A DNA stretch of 64,000 nt from Candidatus Omnitrophota bacterium (GCA_041651035.1 JBAZKC010000002.1:120697-184696); one strand, 5' to 3'. Numbered from the stretch's first letter, positions 2,391-41,698 are shown. A program made the numbers and translations. Notes: a model not told the origin generated them from the sequence alone.

Positions 2391-2455
2391 GATATGCTAA
2401 AATTTCCTTTGCATAATAAATTTAGTATGATATAATTTTAAGATATGCCAGAATT
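2384..2455. repeat. Two direct copies of the AAGATATGCYARAATT element. The second copy spans the GalT-like start codon. A TATAAT lies at 2431-2436.
   Basis: cctcgtaagatatgctaaaatt at 2384-2405 and taattttaagatatgccagaatt at 2432-2455. The same 22-mer recurs at 41765 and, inverted, at 44684. Confidence 0.7.
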
Positions 2456-3473
2456 AAGAAAAGATCCGATCATAGGTAGATGGGTAATTATTGCCACTGA
2501 GCGCGCCAGGCGGCCTGATCAATTCAGCGGCCAGCCGCAGGAGGTTGTGCCTGAGGGGGAGGTTTGCCCTTTTTGTGAGGGTAATGAATCCAAGACTCCT
2601 CCGGAAATATACGCGCTCAGGCCCGGGCATTCAGCTGCAAATACCCCTGGATGGGAATTAAGGGTTGTGCCCAGTATCGCGCCGTTCTTAAGGATAGAAG
2701 GCAGCCTTGACCGCAGGGGCAATGGCTTGTATGACCTGATGAATGGTGTTGGGGCCCATGAGATCGTCATCGAGACAAATCAGCACATAGCCAACATGGC
2801 GGATTTAAGTGAGGAGCAGATAGCCAAAGTCCTCACTTGTTATACAGACAGGATCACGGATCTGGAAAAGGACAAGCGTTTCAAATACGTCTTAGTATTT
2901 AAAAACTATGGTTGGACAGCCGGCGGCGGAAGTGTTAAGCATTCAAGGTCTCAGTTGATCGCTACCCCGGTTAACCCTAAACGAGTTAAGGAAGAATTAG
3001 TAGGTGCTAAGGCGTATTATGAGTATCATGAAAGATGCGTATTCTGCGATCTGATAAGGCAGGAGATAGCATCCAAGGACAGGCTTATATTGGATATCGA
3101 CGGTTTTATAGCGATAACGCCTTTTGCCGCAAGGTTCCCTTTTGAAGTCTGGATCCTGCCAAAGAAACATTCCCCTGATTTTACCAGCCTGGAAATGTCC
3201 ATGCGCCTTGACCTTGGCCGGGTAATAAAGAAAGTCCTGGCTAAATTGAAAAAGGGATTAAATGATCCGCCTTACAATTATGTCCTGCACACAGCTCCTT
3301 TCAGGCGCCAGGAGGTGGGTTATTGGAAAAGTATAGATAATGATTACCACTGGCATATTGAAATTATGCCCCGGCTTACCCGTGTAGCGGGTTTTGAGTG
3401 GGGCACCGGATTTTATATCTGCCCTTTGCCGCCTGAAGACGCGGCAAAGTTTTTAAGAGAGGTTGAAGTTTAA
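2445..3473 (+). CDS. GalT/HIT-family hexose-1-phosphate nucleotidyltransferase-like paralog 1. The catalytic His-Pro-His is replaced by His-Ser-Arg.
   Basis: CPFCEGNE zinc motif and GalT-like C-terminal HWHIEI motif. KHSRSQLIATP aligns with EHPHIQTIALP of the downstream paralog. Confidence 0.7.
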   Translation: MPELRKDPIIGRWVIIATERARRPDQFSGQPQEVVPEGEVCPFCEGNESKTPPEIYALRPGHSAANTPGWELRVVPSIAPFLRIEGSLDRRGNGLYDLMNGVGAHEIVIETNQHIANMADLSEEQIAKVLTCYTDRITDLEKDKRFKYVLVFKNYGWTAGGGSVKHSRSQLIATPVNPKRVKEELVGAKAYYEYHERCVFCDLIRQEIASKDRLILDIDGFIAITPFAARFPFEVWILPKKHSPDFTSLEMSMRLDLGRVIKKVLAKLKKGLNDPPYNYVLHTAPFRRQEVGYWKSIDNDYHWHIEIMPRLTRVAGFEWGTGFYICPLPPEDAAKFLREVEV

Positions 3474-4474
3474 TGTCAGAATTAAGAAGAGACCCTATTG
3501 TAGGAAGATGGGTGATAGTAGATACGGATCACCCCAGCAAGCCGGAAGATTTCCAGCATGAGCCTCATACCTGGCGGGGAGGGACGTGCCCCTTCTGTTA
3601 CGGTAACGAGCTATTGACCCCGCCGGAAATAGATTCGACCAGGGATCCTAATACCAGGCCTAATACATCCGGCTGGCAGGTCCGTGTGGTCCCGAATAAA
3701 TTCCCCGCGCTCCAGATCGAAGGCGATATAGACAGGCGGGCATTGGGTATTTATGATATGTCCAACGGCGTTGGAGCGCATGAGGTGCTGATCGATTCGC
3801 CCTACCATAATAAAAACCTTCCGGACCTGTTAAACAGCGAGATAGAGTGTATTATCTCTATGCTTTGCCGCAGAGCCATAGATCTTACCAAAGACCATCG
3901 TTTTAAATATTTAATGATCTTTAAAAACTATGGACCCGCGGCAGGGGCTTCATTAGAGCATCCGCATATCCAGACCATCGCTCTTCCTATGGTTCCTAAG
4001 AACGTCTTAGAAGAGATACACGGCTCAAGTAACTATTTTAAATACCGCGAACGCTGCATATTCTGCGATATGGTAAGGCAGGAGGAACAGGAAAAGGAAA
4101 GAATAGTCCTGGAAAACAAATATTTTCTTTCTTTTTGCCCGTTTGTCTCGCGGTTTCCTTTTGAGATCTGGATAATTCCCAAGAAGCACAGCAGCCATTT
4201 TTGTTATATACATCCTGAAGAGATCCCGTCGCTGGCGGAAATAATAAAAGATACTTTATCTAAATTAAGAAATGTTTTTCCTGACCCGGCGTATAATTTT
4301 ATTATTCATTCCTTGCCGATAAACGGCGATGCCGGGGCCGGCGTAGGTTATTATCATTGGCATATTGAGATTATGCCGAAATTAACACGCGTTGCTGGTT
4401 TTGAGTGGGGATCGGGTTTTTATGTTGTTTCAACCCCGCCGGAACTGGCCGCTAAATATTTAAGAGAAAAATAA
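3473..4474 (+). CDS. galT: Galactose-1-phosphate uridylyltransferase-family protein (class I GalT-like) with a canonical HPH active site
   Basis: CPFCYGNE motif, EHPHIQ motif and HWHIEIMPKLTRVAGFEWG motif. TAATG overlap with the upstream paralog. Confidence 0.75.
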   Translation: MSELRRDPIVGRWVIVDTDHPSKPEDFQHEPHTWRGGTCPFCYGNELLTPPEIDSTRDPNTRPNTSGWQVRVVPNKFPALQIEGDIDRRALGIYDMSNGVGAHEVLIDSPYHNKNLPDLLNSEIECIISMLCRRAIDLTKDHRFKYLMIFKNYGPAAGASLEHPHIQTIALPMVPKNVLEEIHGSSNYFKYRERCIFCDMVRQEEQEKERIVLENKYFLSFCPFVSRFPFEIWIIPKKHSSHFCYIHPEEIPSLAEIIKDTLSKLRNVFPDPAYNFIIHSLPINGDAGAGVGYYHWHIEIMPKLTRVAGFEWGSGFYVVSTPPELAAKYLREK

Positions 4475-5509
<1,035 letters not shown>

Positions 5510-5532
5510 TTTTTTAGAAGTTTATCTGCTGG

Positions 5533-5570
5533 AAAAGGAGCGACAGAAATGTCGCTCCTTTTTTGTTTTA
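5533..5570 (+). terminator. Rho-independent terminator after gap
   Basis: Hairpin ggagcgaca-gaaa-tgtcgctcc followed by ttttttg. Confidence 0.8.
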
Positions 5571-5577
5571 TCATGAC

Positions 5578-5640
5578 AGGGACTGTCCCCGCAGTCGGCT
5601 ATAGCGTAGCAAACTAAAGGGGACTGTCCCTAAGATAAAA
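5578..5640. repeat. Two copies of the GGGACTGTCCC palindrome (GGGGAC-N-GTCCCC family) separated by about 30 nt
   Basis: Direct reading: gggactgtcccc ... ggggactgtccctaag. The arms GGGAC and GTCCC are reverse complements. Confidence 0.8.
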
Positions 5641-5707
5641 ATCAGGTATAACTCTTTTCGTTAGAAAATAAGAGTTCCTGCGTCTATTATAAGTGAGGGC
5701 ATAAATT

Positions 5708-6403
5708 ATGGAGCTTAAAAAGCGTATACCTATAAACAACTGGCCTAAGGAAGACCGGCCCAGGGAGAAGCTATTAGAGAATGGCGAGCATACTTTAAGC
5801 GATTCCGAGCTGCTGGCGATCATTTTGAGGACAGGAGTAAAGGGAGAAAGCGCCTTGGATCTGGCAAGGAGGATTTTACGGAAATTTAAGACTTTTCGTA
5901 AAATGGGGCAGGCGGATCCGCATCACTGGAAGGAATTAAAGGGCCTGGGTGACGCGAAGCTTGCCCAGATAAAAGCATCCATCGAGATAGCAAGAAGATA
6001 CCAGGAAGAAAAACTTAAGGAGAGCCGTCCTAAAGTAGAGTCTTCAAAAGATGTGGTTGGTATCCTCAGGCCCCGGATGCAGGATTTAAAAAAAGAGGTA
6101 TTTAAGGTTTTGTTCTTAAATTCACAAAACAGGATTATAGATATAATTGAGATAGAGGAAGGAAGCGTGGATCAGGCAAGGCCTATAATAAGAGAGGTTT
6201 TTCAAGAGGCCCTAAAGCAGTTTGCTTCTTTTCTGATCTGTGTCCACAATCATCCTTCCGGAGATCCTAAGCCTAGCGAAGAAGACAAAGAGTTCACGCG
6301 GGCATTAGCTACCGCAGGAGACGCGCTGCTTATAAAATGCCTGGATCATATAATTATCGGAAACGGGAGTTATTTCAGTTTTTGTGATGAGAAGCTTATT
6401 TAA
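5708..6403 (+). CDS. radC: DNA repair protein RadC (JAMM/MPN-domain, UPF0758)
   Basis: C-terminal HNHPSGDPKPSEED JAMM-like motif. N-terminal helix-hairpin-helix-like region. Confidence 0.85.
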   Translation: MELKKRIPINNWPKEDRPREKLLENGEHTLSDSELLAIILRTGVKGESALDLARRILRKFKTFRKMGQADPHHWKELKGLGDAKLAQIKASIEIARRYQEEKLKESRPKVESSKDVVGILRPRMQDLKKEVFKVLFLNSQNRIIDIIEIEEGSVDQARPIIREVFQEALKQFASFLICVHNHPSGDPKPSEEDKEFTRALATAGDALLIKCLDHIIIGNGSYFSFCDEKLI

Positions 6404-6621
6404 GGAAGGAAGTCCTGAAGTTTCTTTTTATAGATCGCCGCGAATTCTTTTAATTGGACGGTGTCAATGCGGCGCTGTCCGGCTTCTAATTTGGAGATGT
6501 AGGATTGCGTCCTGCCTAATTTTTTAGCCGCGTCTACCTGCCTGAGTTTTGCCGCTTTACGCGCTTTAATCAGCTTACCGACTAAATCCTTATGGCTCTT
6601 TGTAAAAATAGTTTTATCCAT
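6400..6621 (-). CDS. XRE-family helix-turn-helix transcriptional regulator of 74 aa. The ORF track over-extends upstream; the start is taken at MDKTIF.
   Basis: KLRQVDAAKKLGRTQSYISKLEAGQRRIDTVQL is a canonical HTH_3 (XRE) motif. Confidence 0.7.
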   Translation of the reverse strand: MDKTIFTKSHKDLVGKLIKARKAAKLRQVDAAKKLGRTQSYISKLEAGQRRIDTVQLKEFAAIYKKKLQDFLP

Positions 6622-6666
6622 TTCGCTTGACACCTCAGGATTCCTATAATATACTAATCTTGTTAA

Positions 6667-6685
6667 TATTCCAAAATGGAATATA
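6667..6685. promoter_or_regulatory. Perfect inverted repeat atattcca-aaa-tggaatat upstream of the XRE regulator gene; candidate operator
   Basis: Direct reading. It sits in the divergent promoter region between the xre gene and the secreted-protein gene. Confidence 0.4.
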
Positions 6686-6829
6686 GATATTAGGCAGATT
6701 AGGATGAAACACCCTGCGCTTATCGTGCCCGGAGCATAACAGGTATTGCGCCGGGTATAACCCAATAAGTTACACCCAAACATATCGGATTGTTTGGTGT
6801 GGCCTTTCTGGCCAAGGAGGGTTTAATCT

Positions 6830-7321
6830 ATGCGAAAATTAGGGTTTTTAGTTGTTTTTATCTTGGGTTTATTTAATTTATGCCTTGCCGCGGAGGAATC
6901 CATTACCATTACTACGTATTATCCGTCACCTTATGGAAGCTATAACCAAGTAGAGGTGCACCGCAGCGTTACTTATAAACCGGTAGATAAGAATACGCTT
7001 GATGATCCTAAAGAAGGGGAGTTGGTTTATAATTCTTCTGATGATTCGTTATATCTTTACAACGGCTCTACCTGGGTAAAGCAAGGAGGAGGGAGTACCT
7101 GCGTCGTCACCTACAATAGTGTTGTTGGTAGCTGTAGTTGTCCCAGTGGTTGGACTCTTAAACTAGATCTCGGTCCCTGGGGCTACTGCTACAGCACCTA
7201 CTACCGCCCCGCCTTTTTCCGCCCGCCGGGCGGAGGCTGCCCCAGCGACAGCAACTGGGGGGGGAGCGGCACCAATATCGGCGCCTCTCTCGGTGAGGGT
7301 TGTTTTTGTTGCCAAAACTAA
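6830..7321 (+). CDS. Secreted hypothetical protein with a signal peptide and a C-terminal domain containing 10 Cys
   Basis: N-terminal MRKLGFLVVFILGLFNLCLA signal peptide. C-terminal CSCPSGW...CYSTYY...GGGCPSD...GCFCCQN. SD aaggaggg upstream. Confidence 0.6.
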   Translation: MRKLGFLVVFILGLFNLCLAAEESITITTYYPSPYGSYNQVEVHRSVTYKPVDKNTLDDPKEGELVYNSSDDSLYLYNGSTWVKQGGGSTCVVTYNSVVGSCSCPSGWTLKLDLGPWGYCYSTYYRPAFFRPPGGGCPSDSNWGGSGTNIGASLGEGCFCCQN

Positions 7322-8092
7322 ATGATTCGTAGGGGAAACTGGTTATTTATTACACTTTTCTTTTGCTCCAACACTTTTGCTTACGATATTAAACCTTATT
7401 TAAACCAATCTCCTTGCGAGGACGAAAAACTTAACTTGGTTTTTTGTTCTTTAAATTACCAAAATAAAGAAGATTCCTTAGAAGATACAAAGATACTTAT
7501 CCGAAGGCTAAAGGGAACCAATCCTTTTGATGAATTCAGGAACCTTGGATTTTGGTATATAGCCCTATCTAAAGAGGAAGAGAGGGAGATCTTCAAGCCA
7601 GCGCCAAGTTTTCCTCCCTGGCAAGTCCCTCAAGGCTTCATAAACAGTATCTCCAAACGCATTAAATCTGTTTACAAGTTAATCATAATTGACGCAAGAG
7701 GATATGTCTCATGTTCGGAGTTATCTTCTCTTGCTAAAACTTCTTTGATCATGTTAGGTAAGGCACGATATAAAGATGAAAACAGTTTTACTAAAGGGTT
7801 TTTGCATGAGTTGGGCCATTCTTTAGGCCTGCGTGATGAGAGTCCGCAGGGTGAAGCAATGCTTTGTTTACCCGGGCCGCCAAATTGCGCCGTTACCAGG
7901 CAGGAAGCAGAGAGGCTTTGGGGTGATCTAGTAGGAAAAGATTCAAGAGCAAATTATATTTCCGGCTGCTGCGGGAATAAGAATTATATCCGGCCAACCA
8001 TTGCTTCTTTGATGAATGATCCGGATAAGGCAGAGGATTTTGGTCCGGTGAATGAGAGGTATTTGCGCCATGTTTTAGGGATAGGCCCCTAA
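7322..8092 (+). CDS. Putative secreted zinc metallopeptidase with an HExxHxxGxxDE motif (M64-like)
   Basis: Hydrophobic N-terminus, HELGHSLGLRDES motif and a Cys-rich C-terminus. The start abuts the stop of the upstream gene. Confidence 0.5.
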   Translation: MIRRGNWLFITLFFCSNTFAYDIKPYLNQSPCEDEKLNLVFCSLNYQNKEDSLEDTKILIRRLKGTNPFDEFRNLGFWYIALSKEEEREIFKPAPSFPPWQVPQGFINSISKRIKSVYKLIIIDARGYVSCSELSSLAKTSLIMLGKARYKDENSFTKGFLHELGHSLGLRDESPQGEAMLCLPGPPNCAVTRQEAERLWGDLVGKDSRANYISGCCGNKNYIRPTIASLMNDPDKAEDFGPVNERYLRHVLGIGP

Positions 8093-8146
8093 GATCGATT
8101 CTCCGAGAACCACCTATCGGGGTCAGTCCCCTGGATTTAAAAATCT

Positions 8147-8176
8147 TGACATTGTATATCATTATGATATACTTTA
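8147..8176 (+). promoter_or_regulatory. Sigma70-like promoter for the toxin-antitoxin operon: TTGACA-N16-TATACT
   Basis: Direct reading: cttgacattgtatatcattatgatatact, followed by the SD ggaggtg. Confidence 0.55.
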
Positions 8177-8192
8177 AGCGGAGGTGATAAAG

Positions 8193-8426
8193 ATGTCCGC
8201 GATGATGAATAAAGAATTGTTGATAAGGATGCCATCTTCTCTTTATGAACAAACGATTAAACTCTCCAGGAAAAGATACATGACCATTTCTTCTTTTATC
8301 CGGGAATTGATTATCGAACAGGTAGAAAGCTCTCTATCCGCGGAAGAAGAAAAGATTGTCGCGCAGGCCGAGAGGCAGTATCTAAAAGGAAGAGGCGTTA
8401 ACTGGAGAAAAGTGAAGCGTGGTTAA
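8193..8426 (+). CDS. Ribbon-helix-helix (CopG-like) antitoxin
   Basis: Small protein directly upstream of, and overlapping, a RelE/ParE toxin gene. SD ggaggtg upstream. The ORF track begins at a GTG at 8184. Confidence 0.6.
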   Translation: MSAMMNKELLIRMPSSLYEQTIKLSRKRYMTISSFIRELIIEQVESSLSAEEEKIVAQAERQYLKGRGVNWRKVKRG

Positions 8427-8691
8427 CTTTGAAGTCCTTTTAATGCCTCAAGCGCTTAAATTCTATAAAACCTGTCCGGAAGAACTCGCCGGCAGGCTAA
8501 ATAAGTGCTTTGAAGAGCTAGAAGGCAATCCTTTCTTCGGGCCGAATATTAAAATATTGAAAGGCGAAAAGAGGCGTTATAGATATCGTATAGGTACCTA
8601 TCGGGTAATTTACGGCATTGACAAAGAAAGCAATAAGGTTATTATTACTTTAATTGCTCCCCGCCATTCTGTATATCGAAATATAAGTTAA
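8419..8691 (+). CDS. RelE/ParE-family type II toxin. Start is either GTG at 8419 or ATG at 8443.
   Basis: YRYRIGTYRVIYGIDKESNKVIITLIAPRHSVY is the typical RelE/ParE C-terminal region. 8-nt overlap with the antitoxin. Confidence 0.7.
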   Translation: MVNFEVLLMPQALKFYKTCPEELAGRLNKCFEELEGNPFFGPNIKILKGEKRRYRYRIGTYRVIYGIDKESNKVIITLIAPRHSVYRNIS

Positions 8692-8708
8692 CGAATAAAT
8701 CTTTCCGC

Positions 8709-8790
8709 AGGGGCTGTCCCTTAACTTCGGCTTAGGGACAGGCTCCTAAGACCAGCCCTTAGGGGACTACATTTCGGACCCAGTCCCTGT
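8709..8790. repeat. Cluster of GGGGAC-N-GTCCCC family palindromes
   Basis: Copies: aggggctgtccctta, cttagggacaggctcctaag, cccttaggggactac...cagtccctg. Confidence 0.7.
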
Positions 8791-8812
8791 TTTTTATGCT
8801 ATAATCCCGCTT

Positions 8813-11068
8813 ATGAACTATCTAACCGTACTGGTTATAGGCTTAAGTGGGATAGTCGTGCAGGTTTTGCTTTTGCGCGAACTGCTGGTGAGTTTCTACG
8901 GCAATGAATTAACCTTAGGGATAATTCTGGCTAATTGGATTCTCGCGGAAGCTTCGGGCGTATTTATCTCCGGGAAGTTTATTGAAAGGGTTAAAAATAA
9001 AGCAAACGTATTTATTATACTACAGGTATTATTTTCCATACTATTGCCTGTATCTATTTATTTGTCCCGCACCTTTAAGAGCCTGATAGGCATTCCTTTT
9101 GGCGAAGGAGTGGGATTATACACCATATTTTATGCTTCTTTCTTGATAATCCTTCCGGTGGGGTTCTGCCACGGTGCATTATTCAGCTCTCTGTGCAAGA
9201 TATGCTCTATAAAGATTAAAGATTTGGCCGGCGCGATAGGCAAAGTATATGCGTGGGAGACGATCGGCACAATCTGCGGCGGAATAATCCTTACCTATCT
9301 ATTCATACCATATCTGAATTCTTTTCAAATAGTTTTCATCCTATCCGTAATTAATCTTGCGGCTTGTTTATTTTTCTTTAAAGATACGGCTAAGGTTTTG
9401 AAATATATTGTTTTGGTTTTGATATTTACGGCAAGTATTTTTTCTTTGCAAGGCGGGATAAAATACCTGAACAAGCTTTCTATCAATAAACAATGGAAGC
9501 AGCAGGAAATCCTGGATTACCGGAATTCTAATTACGGCAATATTGTCGTAACCAAAAGAGAGGGGCAATACACGTTTTTTTATAACGGCATACCTGTAAT
9601 AACTACTCCGTATCCGGACAAGCAATTCGTCCAGGAATTCGGGAATTTGCCTTTGTTATTTTCTAAAAGCCCTAAAGAGGTACTGGTAATAAGCGCCGGG
9701 GCAGGCGGCCTGATAAACGAGATCTTGAAACACCCTGTAAAAAAGATTGATTACGCGGAACTTGATCCTTTACTCATAGAAATGTTAAGGCAATATCCGT
9801 CAGAACTCACGCAAAAGGAATTAACCGATCCGCGGGTTAATATTATGAATTTAGACGGCAGGTTTTTCGTTAAGAATACGCCTAATAAATATGATGTAAT
9901 TTTGATCGGCCTATCTAAGCCGTCGGATTTAAGCGCAAACCGCCTGTTTACCCGCGAATTCTTTTTTTTGGCTAAAGAGAGGCTAAATCCGGATGGGATA
10001 GTAGCGTTAACTTTACCCGGTTCCCTGACTTATCTAAGCCGGGAATTAAAAGACATTAATGCCTGCGTATTGAATGGGCTTAAAGATAGCTATGCTTATG
10101 TCCGTGTTATCCCCGGAGATTACAATATGTTCTTGGCTTCTAACAGTAGAGATATACTGGAAATCACTCCGGATATAATTACGCGAAAGATAGAGCGGAA
10201 AAATATAAGAACCGATATTCTGGTACCAGCTTACATAAACTTTAGGCTAAATAAGGCATGGTCGGATTGGTTCCAGCGTTCATTAACAGGGGCAACCGAA
10301 AAAGTTAACCAGGACCTAAGGCCTTTTGCGGTATTCCAGATGCTGATTCTTTGGAATAAGCAGTTTTCTCCGGGGCTTGCGTATATTTTTGGAATGTTGG
10401 GGAATTTGAATACAGGTTTCTTAGCGGTATTAATATTAGGCATAACTTTGATATTATTTTGTATCTTTTGTAGGAAACGAAGCACCAGTCCAGCTATTGT
10501 ATACAGTATTGCTACTACGGGATTATTCGGCATGCTGGCAAATCTGGTCTTGATCTTTAGTTTCCAGGTTTTCTATGGTTATTTATATTATATGATAGGA
10601 ATATTGATCAGTATCTTTATGGCCGGCATAGCGCTGGGCAGTATTTTTATGACAACTGCCCTTAAAAGGATTAAGGATGGCTTAAGGTTATTTATTGAGC
10701 TTGAGGCAGGGATAATCGTATTTTCCTGCATAATGGCAGTAACATTAACCAGATTTATGTGGTCAGCTCGCCATATCCCATTGATTTTTGCCACACTGCT
10801 TTTTATTTCCGGGTTATTTCTAGGATTGGAATTTCCTCTGGCAAGTAGAATATATCCGGGAAGAAAGGAAGAGGCGGGTAATACTGTAGGAGTGCTTTAT
10901 AGCGCTGACCTGATAGGCGGCTGGGTTGCTGGTGTATTGGGGAGCATTATATTGCTGCCTGTTTTAGGGCTTTTTAATACCTGCCTGGTTATAATTATGT
11001 TTAAACTAAGCAGCCTCTTTCTATTAGGGACACCCAATCTGCTAAAGCCGAGGGTGTCCCCTAAATAA
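8813..11068 (+). CDS. Polytopic membrane protein fused to a spermidine-synthase-like (aminopropyltransferase/methyltransferase fold) domain
   Basis: Multi-transmembrane N-terminus. Central region VLVISAGAGGLINEIL...NIMNLDGRFF...YDVILIG matches the spermidine synthase fold. A TATAAT lies 7 nt upstream of the ATG. Confidence 0.65.
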   Translation: MNYLTVLVIGLSGIVVQVLLLRELLVSFYGNELTLGIILANWILAEASGVFISGKFIERVKNKANVFIILQVLFSILLPVSIYLSRTFKSLIGIPFGEGVGLYTIFYASFLIILPVGFCHGALFSSLCKICSIKIKDLAGAIGKVYAWETIGTICGGIILTYLFIPYLNSFQIVFILSVINLAACLFFFKDTAKVLKYIVLVLIFTASIFSLQGGIKYLNKLSINKQWKQQEILDYRNSNYGNIVVTKREGQYTFFYNGIPVITTPYPDKQFVQEFGNLPLLFSKSPKEVLVISAGAGGLINEILKHPVKKIDYAELDPLLIEMLRQYPSELTQKELTDPRVNIMNLDGRFFVKNTPNKYDVILIGLSKPSDLSANRLFTREFFFLAKERLNPDGIVALTLPGSLTYLSRELKDINACVLNGLKDSYAYVRVIPGDYNMFLASNSRDILEITPDIITRKIERKNIRTDILVPAYINFRLNKAWSDWFQRSLTGATEKVNQDLRPFAVFQMLILWNKQFSPGLAYIFGMLGNLNTGFLAVLILGITLILFCIFCRKRSTSPAIVYSIATTGLFGMLANLVLIFSFQVFYGYLYYMIGILISIFMAGIALGSIFMTTALKRIKDGLRLFIELEAGIIVFSCIMAVTLTRFMWSARHIPLIFATLLFISGLFLGLEFPLASRIYPGRKEEAGNTVGVLYSADLIGGWVAGVLGSIILLPVLGLFNTCLVIIMFKLSSLFLLGTPNLLKPRVSPK

Positions 11069-11146
11069 AAAATAATTCCGGACAGGGGGACACCCTCCCG
11101 ATTGGCTGAAAGGGTGTCCCTCGATTGGCAAGTTGGGTGTCCCTAA
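11026..11146. repeat. Five copies of GGGACACCC / GGGTGTCCC, including a 9-bp-arm hairpin overlapping the CDS end and two direct cgattggcNNNNgggtgtccc units
   Basis: Direct reading: agggacaccc...gagggtgtcccctaa ... gggggacaccctcccgattggctgaaagggtgtccctcgattggcaagttgggtgtccctaa. Confidence 0.8.
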
Positions 11147-11212
11147 AAGGAATTGACAGGAAATATAATTTAATATATATTATAGTCTTAATTAAATAGG
11201 GGGTATTAAGGC

Positions 11213-12394
11213 ATGAGCAAGATGGGTATAAAGGATATGGATTTAAAGGGTAAGACGGTATTGATGCGCGCGGATTTTAATGTGCCGCAGGATGCCAGTT
11301 TAAACATTACCGATGATATACGCATAAGAGGGACATTGCCTACCATAAAATATATATTGCAAAACGGCGCTAAAAAGCTGGTATTAATGAGCCATTTAGG
11401 CAGGCCGGATGGCAAGATTGTGGAAAAATACAGCCTTAAGCCGGTGGCGCTTAGATTAAAGGATTTATTGGGTGAGCCTGTAAGATTCTTGAATGACTGC
11501 GTAGGCGATGATATCAAGAAAGAGATCAGTGAGTCAAAAGAAAGAATAATACTTTTAGAAAATTTAAGGTTTCACGCTGAAGAAGAAGCTAATGATCCCG
11601 GTTTTTCTAAGCAATTAGCTTCTTTAGCGGATGTATTTGTCAATGACGCATTTGGCACAGCCCACCGCGCGCACGCCTCTACAGAGGGCGTTACTCATTA
11701 TCTTAAGTCCGCGGCAGGTTTTCTTTTGGAAAAAGAGATCGAATATTTAGGTAATGCTGTGCAAGATCCTGTCCGGCCGTTTATGGTTATTTTGGGCGGC
11801 GCTAAGGTTTCCGATAAGATAGGGGTTATTGAGAATTTACTTCCAAAATGCGACGCTATTTTGATAGGCGGAGGCATGGCCTACACGTTTCTTAAGGCGC
11901 AGGGAAAAACTATCGGTAATTCTAAGCTGGAGAAAGACAAGCTTGAACTGGCTAAAGGGCTCCTGGATAAGGCAAAGAAATTAAATAAAGAGATTATTTT
12001 ACCCATAGATCACATAGTGGTAGAAAATATTGATCCTAATGCTAAAACAGAGATCGCGGGAGAAAATATCCCCGATGGAAAGATCGCGGTTGATGTCGGG
12101 CCAAAGACCATTTCTTTGTTTAAGGATAAATTGAGATCAGCTAAAACCATTGCCTGGAACGGGCCTTTGGGCATTTTTGAAATGGACGCGTTTAGTAAGG
12201 GTACGCGTGAAGTTGCCGAGTTTATCGCCACTTTAAAGTGCGTTACGATCATCGGAGGCGGAGATACCGCGGCAGCAGTGGCAAAGTTCAAGCTGGAAGA
12301 TAAGATGACCCATATCTCCACCGGCGGCGGAGCGAGTTTGGAGTATCTGGAAGGAAAGGCTTTGCCGGGAATTGCCGCGCTTACGGATAGGTAG
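11213..12394 (+). CDS. pgk: Phosphoglycerate kinase
   Basis: VLMRADFNVP motif and GGGASLE motif. Confidence 0.95.
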   Translation: MSKMGIKDMDLKGKTVLMRADFNVPQDASLNITDDIRIRGTLPTIKYILQNGAKKLVLMSHLGRPDGKIVEKYSLKPVALRLKDLLGEPVRFLNDCVGDDIKKEISESKERIILLENLRFHAEEEANDPGFSKQLASLADVFVNDAFGTAHRAHASTEGVTHYLKSAAGFLLEKEIEYLGNAVQDPVRPFMVILGGAKVSDKIGVIENLLPKCDAILIGGGMAYTFLKAQGKTIGNSKLEKDKLELAKGLLDKAKKLNKEIILPIDHIVVENIDPNAKTEIAGENIPDGKIAVDVGPKTISLFKDKLRSAKTIAWNGPLGIFEMDAFSKGTREVAEFIATLKCVTIIGGGDTAAAVAKFKLEDKMTHISTGGGASLEYLEGKALPGIAALTDR

Positions 12395-12411
12395 CTAAAA
12401 CCATAAATAAA

Positions 12412-13185
12412 ATGAGAAAAACTATTATTGCCGGAAACTGGAAGATGTATAAAACCATAACAGAAGCCATAGAATTGGTTACTGGCCTAAAGAGAGAATT
12501 GTATAAATTGGATAACCAGGCCGTAGAAGTAGTGGTCTGTCCGCCGTTTACGGCGTTAAGCGAGGTTTCCGAGGTAACGGATGATTCGATAATCCAATTA
12601 GGCGCTCAAAATGTTTACTGGCAGGATGAGGGCGCTTTTACGGGTGAGATATCTCCTAAGATGCTAAAGGACGCCGGATGTAAATTTGTAATTATCGGGC
12701 ATTCCGAACGCAGGCAGAATTTCGGAGAAACAAGTGAAACAGTAAACAAAAAAATAAAGGCGGCTTTAGCGGCCGATCTTACGCCGATAGTTTGCGTGGG
12801 TGAAACTTTAAAAGAAAGAGAAGGCGGTTTGACCTTTAAAGTCCTGGATGAACACGTTGGTAACGGCCTTAAAGGGCTATCCGAAGATGATGCCTTGAAA
12901 ATAGTTATTGCTTATGAGCCGGTATGGGCGATAGGCACGGGTAAGACCGCTACTCCGCAGCAAGCTCAAGAAGTGCATAAATATATTCGCGATTTATTAA
13001 AAAAAGAGTATAATGAAGACACGGCTAATAGTATAAGGATACAGTATGGCGGAAGCGTAAAGCCGGAGAATATTATCGAGCTCATGAAACAGCCGGATGT
13101 CGACGGAGCTTTGGTCGGCGGGGCAAGTTTAGCGGTTGAATCGTTTGTTCAAATAGTAAAGAAATCCTGCGAGGTCCTAAAATGA
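12412..13185 (+). CDS. tpiA: Triosephosphate isomerase
   Basis: AGNWKMYKT motif and IIGHSERR motif. Confidence 0.95.
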   Translation: MRKTIIAGNWKMYKTITEAIELVTGLKRELYKLDNQAVEVVVCPPFTALSEVSEVTDDSIIQLGAQNVYWQDEGAFTGEISPKMLKDAGCKFVIIGHSERRQNFGETSETVNKKIKAALAADLTPIVCVGETLKEREGGLTFKVLDEHVGNGLKGLSEDDALKIVIAYEPVWAIGTGKTATPQQAQEVHKYIRDLLKKEYNEDTANSIRIQYGGSVKPENIIELMKQPDVDGALVGGASLAVESFVQIVKKSCEVLK

Positions 13186-14738: not shown

Positions 14739-15338
14739 ATGCTAAAACTATTTGAGCCTTATATGCTTGCCTTTATACCCATATTTGTGGCAGTAGATGC
14801 CATAGGCAATATTCCTGTGTTTGTTTCTATTGTTGAGGGGGTAAACAAGAAGCAGAAACGCAGGATCATCCTGGAATCAGTTATCACCGCGACCGCTTTA
14901 GCGGTCCTTTTTATGTTCGTCGGTAAATGGGTATTAGGGGCTATCGGCGTAACCATACCGGATTTTCAGATCGCCGGAGGAATACTTTTATTCGTGATAG
15001 CTGTGCGGCTTTTATTACCCGGTTCGCATAAGGCTCTTTTGTCCAATGGCCGGGATAAAGACGCGGGCGTCTTTCCTTTGGGAACACCTTTGATCACCGG
15101 GCCGGCGGTGCTAACTACGGCGTTGATGATACGGGATAGTTTCGGTATCGCGCCCGCGTTTGTTTCTTTGGTCCTGAATATGCTGATCACCTGGTTGACG
15201 CTCATGCAGGCGGATTTTATTATAAAATTTATGGGCTCCAGCGGCACGCGCGCTTTTTCCAAGATCATGTATATTTTATTGGCTGCAATAGCCGTAATGA
15301 TGGTGAGGCGCGGTATGTTAGGCGTAATGCTAAGATGA
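14739..15338 (+). CDS. MarC-family (UPF0056) integral membrane protein
   Basis: Sequence IPIFVAVDAIGNIPVF and overall MarC-like topology. Confidence 0.7.
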   Translation: MLKLFEPYMLAFIPIFVAVDAIGNIPVFVSIVEGVNKKQKRRIILESVITATALAVLFMFVGKWVLGAIGVTIPDFQIAGGILLFVIAVRLLLPGSHKALLSNGRDKDAGVFPLGTPLITGPAVLTTALMIRDSFGIAPAFVSLVLNMLITWLTLMQADFIIKFMGSSGTRAFSKIMYILLAAIAVMMVRRGMLGVMLR

Positions 15339-16561
15339 TGCGCAGTGTCTTAACATTTATAATGGCAGGCGGTAAAGGAGAGCGGCTGTATCCTTTAACT
15401 AAAGACAGGGCCAAGCCGGCAGTGCCGTTTGGCGGCATATACAGGATCATAGACTTTACTTTAAGTAACTGCATAAATTCAGGCCTGCGCAAGATTTATC
15501 TTCTTACCCAGTATAAATCCGCCTCTTTACAAAGGCATATACGGCTTGGCTGGAATATTTTACCGTCTGAGTTAGGCCAATTCATCGAGATACTTCCCGC
15601 CCAACAGAGGGTCGGCGAATCCTGGTATTTGGGGACTGCCGACGCGATCTATCAAAATCTTTACACCTTAGAGATTGATTATCCTGATGAAGTCCTGATA
15701 CTGGCCGGAGATCATATTTATAAAATGAATTACTATACCATGATAGACTATCATCGGGAACAGGACGCGGATTTGACGGTGGGGGTGGTAGAGGTAGATA
15801 AGGACAAGGCCGCTCATTTAGGCGTAGTAGAGGTAGATAATGCCGGCAAGGTAATAGGATTTGAAGAGAAACCCGCCAAGCCTAAAACAATACCCTATCA
15901 GCCGGATAAGATATACGCGTCTATGGGCATATATGTTTTTAAGCATCCCATCCTTGAGCAGGAGCTTCAGGAGGACGCCAAGAAACGCAGCTCTACCCAT
16001 GATTTTGGCAAGGACATAATCCCGCAGATGCTTAAGAAGGGCTTAAAGGTGGCTGTCTTTAACTTTATCGACGAGAATAAGAAAGAGGCGCAATATTGGC
16101 GGGATATCGGGACTATGGATGCCTATTATGAAGCGAATATGGATTTAGTGCAGGTTGATCCCGTATTTAATCTTTATGACAAAAACTGGCCCATAAGAAC
16201 CCTTCAGGAACAATTTCCTTCAGCTAAAACAGTATTCTCCGGTGAAGAAGTTACCGGCAGGGTGGGTTTAGTGCTTGATTCTGTAGTTTCTAACGGCTGC
16301 ATCGTAAGCGGCGGCAGGGTCCAGCGTTCAATACTTTCTCCGAATGTCAGGGTGAATAGTTACTGCCAGGTTTACGATTCTATCCTTATGGAAGGCGTGA
16401 ATGTGGCTAGATACGCGAAAATAAAGAAGGCAATAATTGATAAAGATGTAAGTATCCCCCAGGGCGTAGTGATCGGATATGACCCGGAAGAAGACAAAAA
16501 AAGGTTTTATGTGACTGAATCAGGGATAGTCGTAGTGGCGAAAGGGACGGAGATTAAATGA
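15335..16561 (+). CDS. glgC: Glucose-1-phosphate adenylyltransferase
   Basis: N-terminal AGGKGERLYPLTKDRAKPAVPFGG motif. C-terminal left-handed beta-helix region. Confidence 0.9.
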   Translation: MMRSVLTFIMAGGKGERLYPLTKDRAKPAVPFGGIYRIIDFTLSNCINSGLRKIYLLTQYKSASLQRHIRLGWNILPSELGQFIEILPAQQRVGESWYLGTADAIYQNLYTLEIDYPDEVLILAGDHIYKMNYYTMIDYHREQDADLTVGVVEVDKDKAAHLGVVEVDNAGKVIGFEEKPAKPKTIPYQPDKIYASMGIYVFKHPILEQELQEDAKKRSSTHDFGKDIIPQMLKKGLKVAVFNFIDENKKEAQYWRDIGTMDAYYEANMDLVQVDPVFNLYDKNWPIRTLQEQFPSAKTVFSGEEVTGRVGLVLDSVVSNGCIVSGGRVQRSILSPNVRVNSYCQVYDSILMEGVNVARYAKIKKAIIDKDVSIPQGVVIGYDPEEDKKRFYVTESGIVVVAKGTEIK

Positions 16562-17007
16562 TCCGTAAAGCCAGGATAGAAGACATAAAAGAGATACAAG
16601 GCTTAATCCAGTATTTTGCTAAGCTGGACTTGATGCTGCCGCGTTCTTTGAATGAGCTGTATGAGAATTTAAGGGATTTCTGGGTATGCGAAGAAAACAA
16701 TAAGATCGTGGGCTGCGCCGCTGTGCATATTTCCTGGGATGATTTAGTAGAAATAAAATCTGTAGCCGTAGCAAAGACAAGGCAAGGCAAGGGAATAGGC
16801 AAAGAATTAATATCCACATGCCTGAATGAGGCCAAGCATCTTGGAGCCAAGAGAATATTCGTGCTCACCTATAAGCCGGATTATTTTAAAAAATTCGGGT
16901 TCAAGAGAGTAAAAACTTCCGACTTGCCCCATAAAGTCTGGGCGGAATGCATTAATTGCTGCAAATTCCCGGACTGCCAGGAAATCGCCCTTCTAAAACA
17001 ATTGTAA
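16558..17007 (+). CDS. GNAT-family N-acetyltransferase (N-acetylglutamate-synthase-like)
   Basis: Acetyl-CoA-binding motif VAKTRQGKGIGKELI. Confidence 0.7.
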   Translation: MIRKARIEDIKEIQGLIQYFAKLDLMLPRSLNELYENLRDFWVCEENNKIVGCAAVHISWDDLVEIKSVAVAKTRQGKGIGKELISTCLNEAKHLGAKRIFVLTYKPDYFKKFGFKRVKTSDLPHKVWAECINCCKFPDCQEIALLKQL

Positions 17008-20338: not shown

Positions 20339-20689
20339 ATGTCAAGCATATCCTTTGAAGAAAAAAGGTCGTTTCCCAGATTTCCTATCAAGATCCCATT
20401 AGTATGCCTAGACGAAAATTCTAATAAGGACTTGGAAGCCGCCGAGGTGTTTGATATAAGCGCGCAAGGGATAGGTATAATTACAAATGAAGAGTTATCT
20501 TTGGGTGTACGCCTAAATATAACCTTGAAGATGCCTGATAACGGAGAGCAGGTCTCCCGTAAAGGCAAGGTTATCTGGATAAGAAAGATCCAGCCCGTAA
20601 AATACAGGACAGGCGTCAAATTAGAAGAGCCAAAAATAAAACCGATCCCGCTGGTGCTAAGAATCATAAATTTTCAAAGGAAATATTAA
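20339..20689 (+). CDS. PilZ-domain protein (c-di-GMP binding)
   Basis: RxxxR motif (RSFPR) and DxSxxG motif (DISAQG). Confidence 0.75.
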   Translation: MSSISFEEKRSFPRFPIKIPLVCLDENSNKDLEAAEVFDISAQGIGIITNEELSLGVRLNITLKMPDNGEQVSRKGKVIWIRKIQPVKYRTGVKLEEPKIKPIPLVLRIINFQRKY

Positions 20690-20861: not shown

Positions 20862-21053
20862 ATGATGGAAAGGAAAGCTATGAACGGCGGATTAATGACC
20901 ATAGAAGACCTATCAGATTACCTGAAAGTTACACGCAGGACAATTTATGACTGGGTAAAACACAATAAGATCCCCGCGGTTAAGTTGGTTGGCCAGTGGA
21001 GATTTAAAAAAGATAAGATTGATGCCTGGATTGAGAACAGGTCGCTACATTAA
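20862..21053 (+). CDS. Small HTH_17 (excisionase/MerR-like) DNA-binding protein. The start is possibly the ATG at 20880, which follows SD aaggaaag.
   Basis: MTIEDLSDYLKVTRRTIYDWVKHNKIPAVKLVGQWRFKKDKIDAWI fits the HTH_17 pattern. Confidence 0.65.
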   Translation: MMERKAMNGGLMTIEDLSDYLKVTRRTIYDWVKHNKIPAVKLVGQWRFKKDKIDAWIENRSLH

Positions 21054-25485: not shown

Positions 25486-25606
25486 ATTTTAGCGGCCGTG
25501 TCAAGGCAGGGGGAGATAAAACAGAACCGTTCCCTTATCTTTTGTTAGATTTCCTTTCCGGCTGCGTCTATTAATATAGAAAGGAGGCAAAAGGGGGATT
25601 TTTAGT

Positions 25607-41602: not shown

Positions 41603-41662
41603 CTCTTTGGGGCATAAAGAGTTTTATCTCTGATTATTGTTAGGAATACGCGGAAAATCTAG

Positions 41663-41698
41663 GGGACGGTTCTAGAATAGAACCGTCCCCTTGTTTTT
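41663..41698 (+). terminator. Perfect 13-bp-arm palindrome ggggacggttcta-gaa-tagaaccgtcccc followed by a T-run. It is a terminator and a member of the GGGGAC/GTCCCC family.
   Basis: Direct reading. Confidence 0.75.

Follow-up and report, generated by a model that had tools for sequence, protein, structure and literature searches.

Gene order and palindromic repeats between gap and pgk in a Candidatus Omnitrophota genome suggest a mosaic of an old resident gene, a relocated native block and REP elements

To understand how 5.7 kb of DNA came to separate the glycolytic genes gap and pgk-tpiA-secG in a Candidatus Omnitrophota metagenome-assembled genome (MAG), we analyzed a 64,000-nucleotide stretch of its sequence (GCA_041651035.1, JBAZKC010000002.1:120697-184696; hereafter the window), in which the gap-pgk interval covers positions 5510-11212. 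An original prediction made from this sequence held that the interval is a single accessory insertion, acquired or shuffled through one family of repetitive extragenic palindromic (REP)-like repeats sitting at every junction between its modules. The analysis combined: (i) domain scans of the window (Pfam, NCBIfam, and PHROGs; Rfam at gathering thresholds; ARAGORN for tRNA genes); (ii) tblastn comparison of the window proteins with 20 Omnitrophota loci around pgk, the gap-pgk site being readable in about 10 of them (loci are designated L and a number); (iii) single-strand folding, expressed as z-scores against 200 shuffled sequences; (iv) a covariance model built from the REP hairpins near 11 kb and searched with filters off; and (v) an independent assembly, Logan contig L170 of run SRR8542065, used to check the joints of the window. 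The closest relatives of the window Pgk are 61-86% identical and belong to Candidatus Omnitrophota MAGs, a few of them deposited as Planctomycetales. The features of the locus are as follows.

4490-5509, + strand: gap (glyceraldehyde-3-phosphate dehydrogenase), the left anchor; Pfam Gp_dh_N and Gp_dh_C, 89% identity to gap of L012 and L005
5530-5565, + strand: intrinsic terminator after gap, hairpin with T-run; terminator scan, folding z -7.1
5578-5631, no strand: palindrome r1, AGGGACTGTCCCC, 27 nt, AGGGGACTGTCCCT; z -4.8
5660-5688, + strand: promoter-like motif GTTAGA-N15-CGTCTATT before radC, kept upstream of radC in L172 and L173
5708-6403, + strand: radC, full length (UPF0758_N and JAB); NCBIfam NF000642, 241.9 bits against a cutoff of 180
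6400-6621, - strand (longest open reading frame, ORF, to 6783): XRE-family helix-turn-helix regulator; Pfam HTH_3
6830-7321, + strand: secreted Cys-rich protein, apparent homologue of the variable (target) protein of diversity-generating retroelements (DGRs); part resembling a variable repeat (VR) at about 7168-7318
7322-8092, + strand: probable M64-fold zinc metalloprotease, HExxH, HELGHSLGLRDE
8100-8140, no strand: r2, the second repeat site of the original prediction, a single GGGGTCAGTCCCC; z 0.0
8146-8691, + strand: type II toxin-antitoxin (TA) operon; promoter at 8146-8173 (scan, 11/12 positions)
8184-8426, + strand: ribbon-helix-helix (RHH)/Arc-like antitoxin; PHROG Arc-like, E 8e-4
8419-8691, + strand: RelE/ParE toxin; Pfam ParE_toxin, 30.5 bits against a cutoff of 23; PHROG RelE-like, E 1.7e-12
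8710-8746, no strand: r3a, imperfect and marginal hairpin, GGGGCTGTCCCT, 12 nt, AGGGACAGGCTCC
8761-8795, + strand: r3b, hairpin with T-run just before the ATG of the spermidine-synthase-like gene, AGGGGACT..AGTCCCT; covariance model 13.2 bits
8813-11068, + strand: membrane-fused spermidine-synthase-like (SpeE-like) gene; Pfam Spermine_synth, NCBIfam fused MFS/SpdSyn
11026-11061, - strand: REP of the upstream-flank (UP) type, left arm of the REP doublet (REPIN); covariance model 49.9 bits
11086-11121, + strand: REP of the downstream-flank (DN) type, right arm of the REPIN, with the CCCGATTGG loop motif; covariance model 58.5 bits
11122-11144, + strand: 23-nt partial direct copy after the right REP arm
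11153-11181, + strand: pgk promoter, TTGACA, 17 nt, TATATT, 8 nt past the REP; kept in L012, L004, and L015
11213-13538, + strand: pgk-tpiA-secG, the right anchor (pgk 11213-12394)
41662-41690, no strand, outside the interval: REP-like terminator hairpin of a second family linked to REP-associated tyrosine transposases (RAYTs), GGGGACGGTTCTA..TAGAACCGTCCCC; z -7.3

ORF listing and the Pfam, NCBIfam, and PHROG scans bore out the gene list and gene order of the original prediction, and also its remark that the interval lacks an integrase or transposase: no integrase, recombinase, or transposase domain was found in 5510-11212 with these three databases. The XRE gene converges with radC and diverges from the gene for the variable protein, and the two TA genes share an 8-nt overlap, so that the pair has the small overlapping genes and family domains of a type II TA operon. 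The Rfam scan of the window returned tRNA-Met only, and ARAGORN detected no nearby tRNA that might act as an attachment site for the interval.

The comparison with relatives bears first on the SpeE-like gene. This 2.26-kb gene appears to be an old resident between gap and pgk in the subclade, and to lie outside the lineage-specific insertion, because it occupies the same place in L012 (the closest relative; gap 89%, Pgk 86% identical), L005, and L010, and is found directly upstream of pgk in L015 and L004 as well, whose contigs end short of gap (that of L004 begins with the SpeE-like C-terminus). In the more distant L001, L003, L014, L018, and L019, gap adjoins pgk at a distance of 8-25 nt. 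The contiguity of the two genes on which the original prediction had relied is seen in these five loci, and not in the three where the SpeE-like gene stands between them.

On the other hand, radC, the XRE gene, the Cys-rich protein, the HExxH protein, and the TA pair were found at this site in none of these relatives. The right edge of the added DNA is likely to be r3b (8761-8795), since this hairpin with its T-run is positionally orthologous to the 3' half of the L012 gap terminator (GGGGACTGTCCCC-GAA-GGGGACAGTCCCC-TTTTT) and can be aligned with it. At the left edge, the terminator at 5530-5565 holds the same position as the gap terminators of L012 and L005 in a positional alignment and has another sequence. 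Taken together, the lineage-specific DNA would extend from just after the gap stop codon to about 8760 (about 5.51-8.76 kb), that is, about 3.2 kb, and would have brought or created a new gap terminator. The proposal that the interval carries added DNA thus survives for this 3.2 kb, and the single 5.7-kb insertion does not, as its largest gene is apparently ancestral.

A metagenome assembly could also produce a joint of this kind, in which case gap and radC would have been fused artificially at r1. REP-type repeats do break assemblies (the Logan contig that carries the RAYT gene described below ends inside a downstream REP), and L170, which starts at 6076, leaves 5510-6075 uncovered. However, the end of L170 lies inside radC and not at a repeat, composition is uniform across the joint, and the deposited contig spans 385,813 bp. 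Moreover, L170 is 100% identical to the window across 6076-11287, so the joints from radC to pgk, including those of relE, the SpeE-like gene, and pgk, are no artefacts. We regard a chimera as highly improbable.

Two further observations concern the anchors. Extra DNA parts pgk from tpiA in L005 (11231-11581, a paralogue of window ORF 1043-1423) and in L010 (11180-11805), and therefore the glycolytic cluster is broken at other points in the clade too. Upstream of gap, positions 2445-4474 hold two tandem galT-like paralogues (galactose-1-phosphate uridylyltransferase type); all close relatives keep the pair, with tblastn cross-matches of about 46-53% identity from one paralogue to the other.

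Regarding the origin of the added genes, radC has 7,755 homologues at E <= 1e-20, of which the best non-self matches are 83, 81, and 80% identical, and every source-named match is from Omnitrophota; this range of identity is the same as that of housekeeping genes. The products of radC, the XRE gene, and the Cys-rich gene show 36-83% identity to Omnitrophota homologues. The same genes occur linked elsewhere in the phylum: in L172 and L173 the order is POR genes, rubrerythrin, ferredoxin, surA (- strand), radC (+ strand), XRE (- strand), and the Cys-rich/target-like gene, followed in L172 by purB-purL, while the L173 contig stops after the Cys-rich gene. The XRE protein is 77-78% identical to the product of the same-position gene in these two loci, and the radC promoter region is homologous to theirs. 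In addition, an M64-like gene lies upstream of purB in L086 and L087, and in L086 surA is also beside the M64-like gene.

None of this indicates a foreign affinity, given that the closest matches of radC (83%), XRE (78%), and the M64-like protein (67%) are all from Omnitrophota. Nor is the composition atypical: GC content, GC content at third codon positions (GC3), and codon log-likelihood of the block genes stay within about 2 standard deviations of the window (relE has a GC3 z of -2.0), and the tetranucleotide z reaches at most 2.4 in the block against 2.9 in the ancestral SpeE-like region. Composition, for which the original prediction had proposed a scan of GC skew and codon usage over 5.5-11.2 kb, does not flag the block against the window. 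No flanking direct repeats beyond the palindromes and no att sites were found at the block. Absence from the same site in relatives, as expected of an island, holds for 5.51-8.76 kb and is false for the SpeE-like gene. The 3.2 kb of DNA is therefore native rather than foreign, and apart from that absence it fails the tests of a horizontally acquired island; the idea of accessory, foreign cargo finds no footing in the radC identities, the linked block of L172 and L173, or a composition typical of the window.

It should be considered whether the gene order of the window is itself ancestral and the relatives lost the block. Only about 10 gap-pgk loci were sampled, and gene loss is common in small-genome candidate phyla. 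This history, however, would need independent losses in the gap-speE-pgk and in the gap-pgk lineages, together with independent gains of the block at surA/purB in L172 and L173 and partial ones in L086 and L087, and it is at odds with the hairpin before the SpeE-like gene, which aligns with the L012 gap terminator. We judge it very unlikely.

In the course of these comparisons, an intein (Hint/Intein_splicing) was observed in the TPP-binding subunit of 2-oxoacid:ferredoxin oxidoreductase in L086 (3213-5195) and L173 (5640-7622), and not in L172. We also observed that the promoter-like motif before radC, in the general form GTTAGA-N12-20-CGTC(T/A)ATT followed by GGAGG, occurs at 5660-5688 and 25544-25572 in the window (two copies, against none expected), at 6046-6090 in L172, and before RAYT genes in L090-L105; it precedes radC, RAYT genes, and an ORF6N gene, and it may represent a lineage-specific class of promoter or operator.

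The two central genes of the block deserve separate description. The Cys-rich protein is 49% identical (E 4e-36) to a protein of L083 whose C-terminus is a DGR variable repeat; the alignment runs through this repeat, the variable positions fall on Asn codons of the template, and the template repeat (TR) of L083 matches window positions 7168-7247 (E 1e-12). In L081, L082, and L083 the DGR is of the classic kind: the small-protein gene upstream ends, on its 3' side, in a variable repeat, whose partner is a template repeat rich in Asn codons located between the reverse transcriptase (RT) and Avd genes, and the TR/VR pairs of 84-96 nt differ at template adenines (A-to-N). The RVT_1 and bAvd genes of these three loci are placed between the target and the M64-like gene, and L086 has the same four genes in another order, with Avd before the RT. 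On this basis, the Cys-rich protein can be considered a homologue of the DGR variable protein.

The window holds the retroelement-free form of this arrangement. The TAA of the target gene directly abuts the ATG of the protease gene, so RT, template repeat, and Avd are missing between them; tblastn with the RT and Avd of L081 and L083 gave no match in the 64 kb, and blastn found no second copy of 7100-7330 in the window. Nor did these searches turn up an integrase in the 64 kb. Among the features of a DGR, a target with a variable C-terminal region is thus present by homology only, and RT/Avd and a TR/VR pair are not. RT-less versions also occur in L084, L087, L088, L089, and L172. A weak PF26696 assignment is precomputed on an identical Logan gene; our Pfam scan of the Cys-rich protein and its homologues gave weak matches only (Mtd_N, E 0.009, for L083) and did not recover PF26696.

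As for the HExxH protein, it has 224 homologues, and among the 120 listed identities are 52-67% and every source-named one is from Omnitrophota. The HELGH motif and E173 are invariant in 32 sequences. The AlphaFold (AF2) model (pLDDT 74) retrieved in Foldseek BF3526 (E 2e-6), the IgA protease of T. ramosa (E 1e-5), and BACOVA_00663, the matches ranging from E 2e-6 to 1e-5 with TMq 0.54-0.57. The window protein has no direct Pfam match, while some homologues carry a precomputed PF09471. The modelled fold and the HELGH..E signature support its designation as an M64-fold zinc metalloprotease, and the label "M64-like" given in the original prediction was well chosen.

The pairing of both genes is persistent, as a target-like gene precedes the M64-like gene in 9 of 9 loci examined, and the order XRE (- strand), target, M64-like recurs in L088. 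The pair is seen at 6830-8092 in the window, 7425-10771 in L081, 7716-10786 in L083, and 6372-8771 in L086, with RT, TR, and Avd between or beside its members in only part of the genomes. The protease may process the variable surface protein. In the literature searched, we found no description of a DGR-type variable protein paired with an M64 protease, and the reports found on DGRs mention Omnitrophota only in passing. The DGR cassette of L081 is located beside XRE, HTH_17, and phage-type integrase genes and near a nucleotidyltransferase/HepT TA pair (11574-12886 and 6771-7374), and it appears to ride on an integrative element.

The palindromes of the interval were then considered as a group. 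In the window, GGGACNGTCCC (at most one mismatch) occurs 5 times against 1.0 expected and GGGACACCC 5 times against 0.11 expected, the latter always within 11027-11143; no shuffle reached either count. Folding gave z-scores of -4.8 for 5572-5640 and -6.8 for 11020-11150, which are real structures, -1.45 for 8700-8800, where 17 of 200 shuffles fold as well, and 0.0 for 8095-8140, which shows no significant palindrome. Hence, out of the four sites originally proposed, those at 5578-5640 and 11026-11146 are real, 8709-8790 is marginal, and 8100-8140 is not significant. The covariance model scores the two arms near 11 kb at 50-58 bits, 5578-5631 and 8762-8788 at 13-14 bits (E 0.1-0.2), and nothing else in the window above 14 bits, and the divergent junction between the XRE and Cys-rich genes (6622-6829) has no such repeat. 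The palindromes therefore belong to at least two families, and no single family is present at every junction.

A homologue of r1 is located at a non-orthologous site in L004 (5692-5747), between the orthologues of window ORFs 15335-16561 and 16558-17007, two genes that overlap in the window and abut in L006; of r1 and r3, this indication of mobility was obtained for r1 alone. A short-loop version of r1 constitutes the gap terminator of L012 (7664-7692). The r1 signature is GGGACTGTCCC. Beyond L004 and L012, GGGACWGTCCC is present in none of 169 loci (about 80 of them RAYT loci), and it was never seen beside a RAYT. Thus r1 looks like a mobile palindrome whose family is seen only in close relatives, with no link to a RAYT.

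In blastn-short searches r1 matched only L004, and r2 and r3 had no significant relatives in any locus. r2 is noise. r3a is weakly similar to the stems of r1 and L012, sharing GGGG(A)CTGTCCCT with r1, and the region 8710-8788 is best described as marginal and, in part, as a putative remnant of the ancestral gap terminator.

The repeat at 11026-11144 is of a different nature. Its arms (11026-11061 and 11086-11121), each a 36-nt hairpin whose stem measures 10 bp, are inverted, 78% complementary, and separated by a 24-nt spacer, and the covariance model places them on opposite strands. The DN arm is intergenic. The UP arm overlaps the 3' end of the SpeE-like ORF, which takes its final 14 codons and its stop codon from the REP (11026-11068), and therefore the repeat insertion replaced the native C-terminus of the protein.

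Hairpins of the same kind flank transposase genes in other loci. L089 encodes a 162-amino-acid Y1_Tnp protein that scores 84.3 bits with the NCBIfam RAYT equivalog NF047646 (cutoff 80), and GGGACACCC..GGGTGTCCC hairpins lie on both sides of its gene; one such hairpin is likewise found on each side of the Y1_Tnp gene in L092, L094, and L095, and the flanks of L171 are of the same types. A metagenome scan with the L089 protein returned 80 loci; RAYT homologues in metagenomes number in the thousands. In the NF047646 scan, which left out the L092 transposase, L171 (protein P0140, 84.2 bits) and L095 (80.6) also pass the cutoff, and L094 (77.7) and L088 (75.3) fall just under it, while the IS200 equivalog gives these proteins 22-29 bits (cutoff 55), which places them in the RAYT clade and not with IS200. 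The window arms are 87-97% identical to the RAYT-flank hairpins: the downstream hairpin of L094 and L095, GGGGACACCCTC(C/T)CGATTGGC(A/T)GAAAGGGTGTCCCT, has one mismatch to 11086-11121 (97%; E about 1e-11 to 1e-12), and their upstream hairpin, of the type also found upstream of the L171 RAYT, is 87% identical to 11026-11061.

No RAYT gene is present in the 64-kb window, and among the first 89 loci only L088 and L089 have one. The cognate RAYT is nevertheless very probably encoded in the same MAG. The L171 RAYT (P0140) comes from the same run, SRR8542065, at a GC content of 43.6% against 43.5%; its accession, MFA5144922.1, is 141 numbers from MFA5145063.1 of the window; and it is flanked by both hairpin types of the window, including the half copy downstream. 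The Logan contig of L171 ends inside the downstream REP, a break that hints at repetition.

Two further properties agree with a RAYT system. The CCCGATT loop motif is kept beside differing stems (GGGACACCC, AGACACTTTCC, CCCACTGTCC, and others) in about 20 of 83 RAYT loci, a constancy that would be expected of a recognition motif. In addition, the RAYT gene is convergent with hppA in L089, L090, L093, L094, and L095, a synteny in five genomes that fits vertical inheritance. Considering these results, 11026-11144 can be assigned to the REPINs as a genuine member, that is, two RAYT-flank hairpins without the gene, plus a 23-nt half copy; it appears to have the defining features of a REPIN-RAYT system that can be tested here, copy number lying beyond the reach of 64 kb. 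The term "REP-like" used in the original prediction is apt for this site, in view of the RAYT flanks of L089, L092, L094, L095, and L171.

These hairpins might instead be ordinary intrinsic terminators or operators that share a preferred GGGGAC stem and are not mobile. T-runs are indeed found at gene 3' ends at 41662-41690 and r3b in the window, at 7664-7692 in L012, and at 12409-12458 in L003, and neither r1 nor r3 has a RAYT link. Against this, 36-mers almost identical to those of 11026-11144 border the RAYT genes of five other loci and are also found at non-orthologous sites in different species; the r1-type copy of L004 was inserted at a junction that is overlapping in the window or abutting in L006; and neither REPIN arm (11026-11061 or 11086-11121) has a T-run after it. 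As an account of the repeats, this one is decidedly unlikely.

The second family (GGGGACGGTTCT) is represented in the window by the hairpin at 41662-41690. Related hairpins flank RAYT genes in L102, L103, and L117, and the same 15-16-mers flank the L159 RAYT gene on both sides. Downstream of secG, BT1, and pgk, hairpins of this family have the role of terminators in L003, L009, L012, and L016.

Additional observations on the repeats were made. In three loci (11144-11158 in the window, 233-248 in L004, and 6673-6690 in L089), 7-10 nt separate the 3' end of the downstream-type REP from a TTGACA -35 box that follows it, the gene behind the box being pgk twice and a target-like gene once; either this REP prefers promoter-proximal sites or it adds to the promoter context. 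Upstream of radC, L172 (5946-6030) and L173 (9845-9935) carry a long GC-rich palindromic repeat, GGCAGCGGGTGACTGA...TCAGGCAGGCCCTGCTGCC, for which nothing credible was found in Rfam. A hammerhead ribozyme, considered for CTGATGAG..CGAA within this palindrome, was dropped for want of Rfam support. We also dropped the notion that GGGAC hairpins are DGR IMH/cruciform signals, as their neighbours in relatives are housekeeping genes and they do not follow the variable repeat.

Based on these results, the interval is probably a mosaic of three histories: an old resident gene, a relocated native block, and REP elements in the spacers. The SpeE-like gene would have stood between gap and pgk since before the subclade diverged. 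About 3.2 kb would then have been placed into the gap terminator region, comprising the new terminator, r1, radC, the XRE gene, the variable protein, and its M64 partner; this block, beside which the RelE/RHH TA operon lies, would derive from a surA/purB neighbourhood, and the ancestral GGGGAC-type gap terminator would have stayed on the SpeE-like side. The REPIN would be a non-autonomous single-strand-DNA element of the kind mobilised by RAYTs (Y1/HUH). We infer that the block moved into the gap site and not out of it. The RAYT presumably still acts on these copies, and the hairpins would function as terminators or insulators between the newly juxtaposed units gap|radC, relE|SpeE-like, and SpeE-like|pgk.

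We treat the repeats as occupants of the new spacers, not as the cause of the rearrangement: because similar hairpins are present in ordinary spacers of relatives (after secG, BT1, and pgk), hairpins at junctions do not show causation.

Several points weigh against this mosaic. The direction of movement was deduced by parsimony from about 14 loci and not from a rooted tree, and the genomes that give the surA/purB context differ from those that give the gap-pgk context. The left junction falls in the part outside the independent assembly, L170 starting within radC. The RAYT is placed in the same genome by accession adjacency and binning and not by a closed genome, and according to the covariance model the 64 kb contain one REPIN and the half copy only, with no hidden copies (in 372 kb of sequence from relatives, the model added a single copy, L089 6615-6673). 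For r1 and r3 a RAYT link was not demonstrated, and both could simply be terminators. Furthermore, paired GGGAC..GTCCC sequences occur in 3/5 spacers of the interval against 1/11 outside it (16 intergenic spacers of at least 40 nt in the window; hypergeometric p about 0.06), which is suggestive and not significant, and the palindromic repeat of L172 recurs as a half copy (8466-8516) past its radC-XRE-target-ORF6N block.

Some of these points speak for the model of the original prediction, in which one 5.7-kb accessory segment was acquired or shuffled at REP-like palindromes that part its modules. The block is absent from the site in relatives, the lineage-specific part has a palindrome at either edge (r1 and r3a), the REPIN lies at the pgk edge, and the radC block of L172 is bracketed by two copies of another palindromic repeat; moreover, a RAYT-like gene adjoins the XRE-target-M64 module in L088, and a RAYT and a REP are near the module in L089. 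However, the SpeE-like gene is ancestral, and therefore the REPIN at 11 kb does not mark the boundary of an insertion; r2 lacks significance, a repeat is missing from the XRE/target junction, and at least two repeat families are involved. No target-site duplication or matching pair of ends was found, the same hairpins are present in many ordinary spacers of relatives, and the cargo is native. This model is, in our view, unlikely.

A related scheme stands only a slim chance of being correct, namely that the native 3.2-kb block moved as cargo between REP-type hairpins through the action of a RAYT or a related Y1 enzyme. Such a "composite REP transposon" would work like an IS200/IS605 element whose left and right hairpins are 3 kb apart. 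If true, it would explain the palindromes at both edges (r1 and r3a), the bracketing repeat of L172, the RAYT genes and REPs beside the module in L088 and L089, and the differing sites of the module in most of the genomes examined.

Under the mosaic that we favour, the understanding of glycolytic gene clustering is unchanged, and the split of the cluster is ordinary genome plasticity. For annotation, it follows that the GGGGAC-type hairpins of Omnitrophota are repeats able to break assemblies and should not be read as island boundaries. That a DGR-type variable surface protein always comes with an M64-fold protease, whether or not the retroelement is present, points to a conserved module for the processing of surface proteins in Omnitrophota. 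REPIN-RAYT systems have mostly been studied in Proteobacteria. The presence of this organisation in an uncultivated phylum of the PVC group offers wider data on hairpin recognition and on the persistence of repeat populations; searches of the literature found no paper that treats RAYTs or REPINs together with Omnitrophota.

Outside the interval and its repeats, a PilZ-like small ORF (20339-20689) and an HTH_17/excisionase-like small ORF (20880-21053) were noticed, by eye and from the sequence only, before the gene for a 1079-amino-acid protein at 21068.

Finally, we compared the locus with known systems. REPINs are REP doublets mobilised by RAYTs (Nunvar 2010; Bertels and Rainey 2011, PMC3116915; Ton-Hoang 2012; Bertels 2017, PMC5581495). 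The element described here resembles them in its 36-nt imperfect palindromes of extragenic space, arranged as an inverted pair with a short spacer, in the same hairpins flanking a 160-amino-acid Y1/HUH RAYT, in the synteny of this RAYT (with hppA), and in stems that vary while CCCGATT is constant, as is GTAG in E. coli REPs. It differs in its host, Omnitrophota, in having the conserved motif in the loop and not 5' of the stem, and in the extra 23-nt half copy that accompanies the downstream-type REP both in the window and at the RAYT.

With genomic islands, the interval shares a multi-gene segment that is missing in relatives and has a TA pair and an XRE gene aboard, and in L081 the cassette lies beside an integrase. 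Unlike them, it has no integrase, tRNA att site, direct repeats, or compositional deviation, and its cargo consists of vertically inherited, core-like genes. The "peel-and-paste" elements of the IS200/IS605 family are similar insofar as their transposase and the RAYT are both members of the Y1 HUH superfamily and the mobile unit has hairpins at its ends, but the 3.2-kb block has no transposase inside, and the RAYTs score far under the IS200 cutoff, as given above.

The DGR of Bordetella phage BPP-1 (mtd-avd-TR-brt) is matched by the relatives, whose targets end in true variable repeats and are accompanied by a TR, RVT_1, and bAvd. In contrast, the window is without RT, Avd, and TR, the variable repeat is a small Cys-rich module (FFRPPGGGC...CCQ) with no obvious C-type lectin fold, and in Omnitrophota the cassette is always followed by the gene for an M64-fold protease. 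The interval thus reflects reshuffling of an ordinary sort within the genome rather than a mobile element of a new type, and the finding adds members to known kinds: REPIN-RAYT systems, here in Omnitrophota, DGR target cassettes, here without an RT, and TA pairs.

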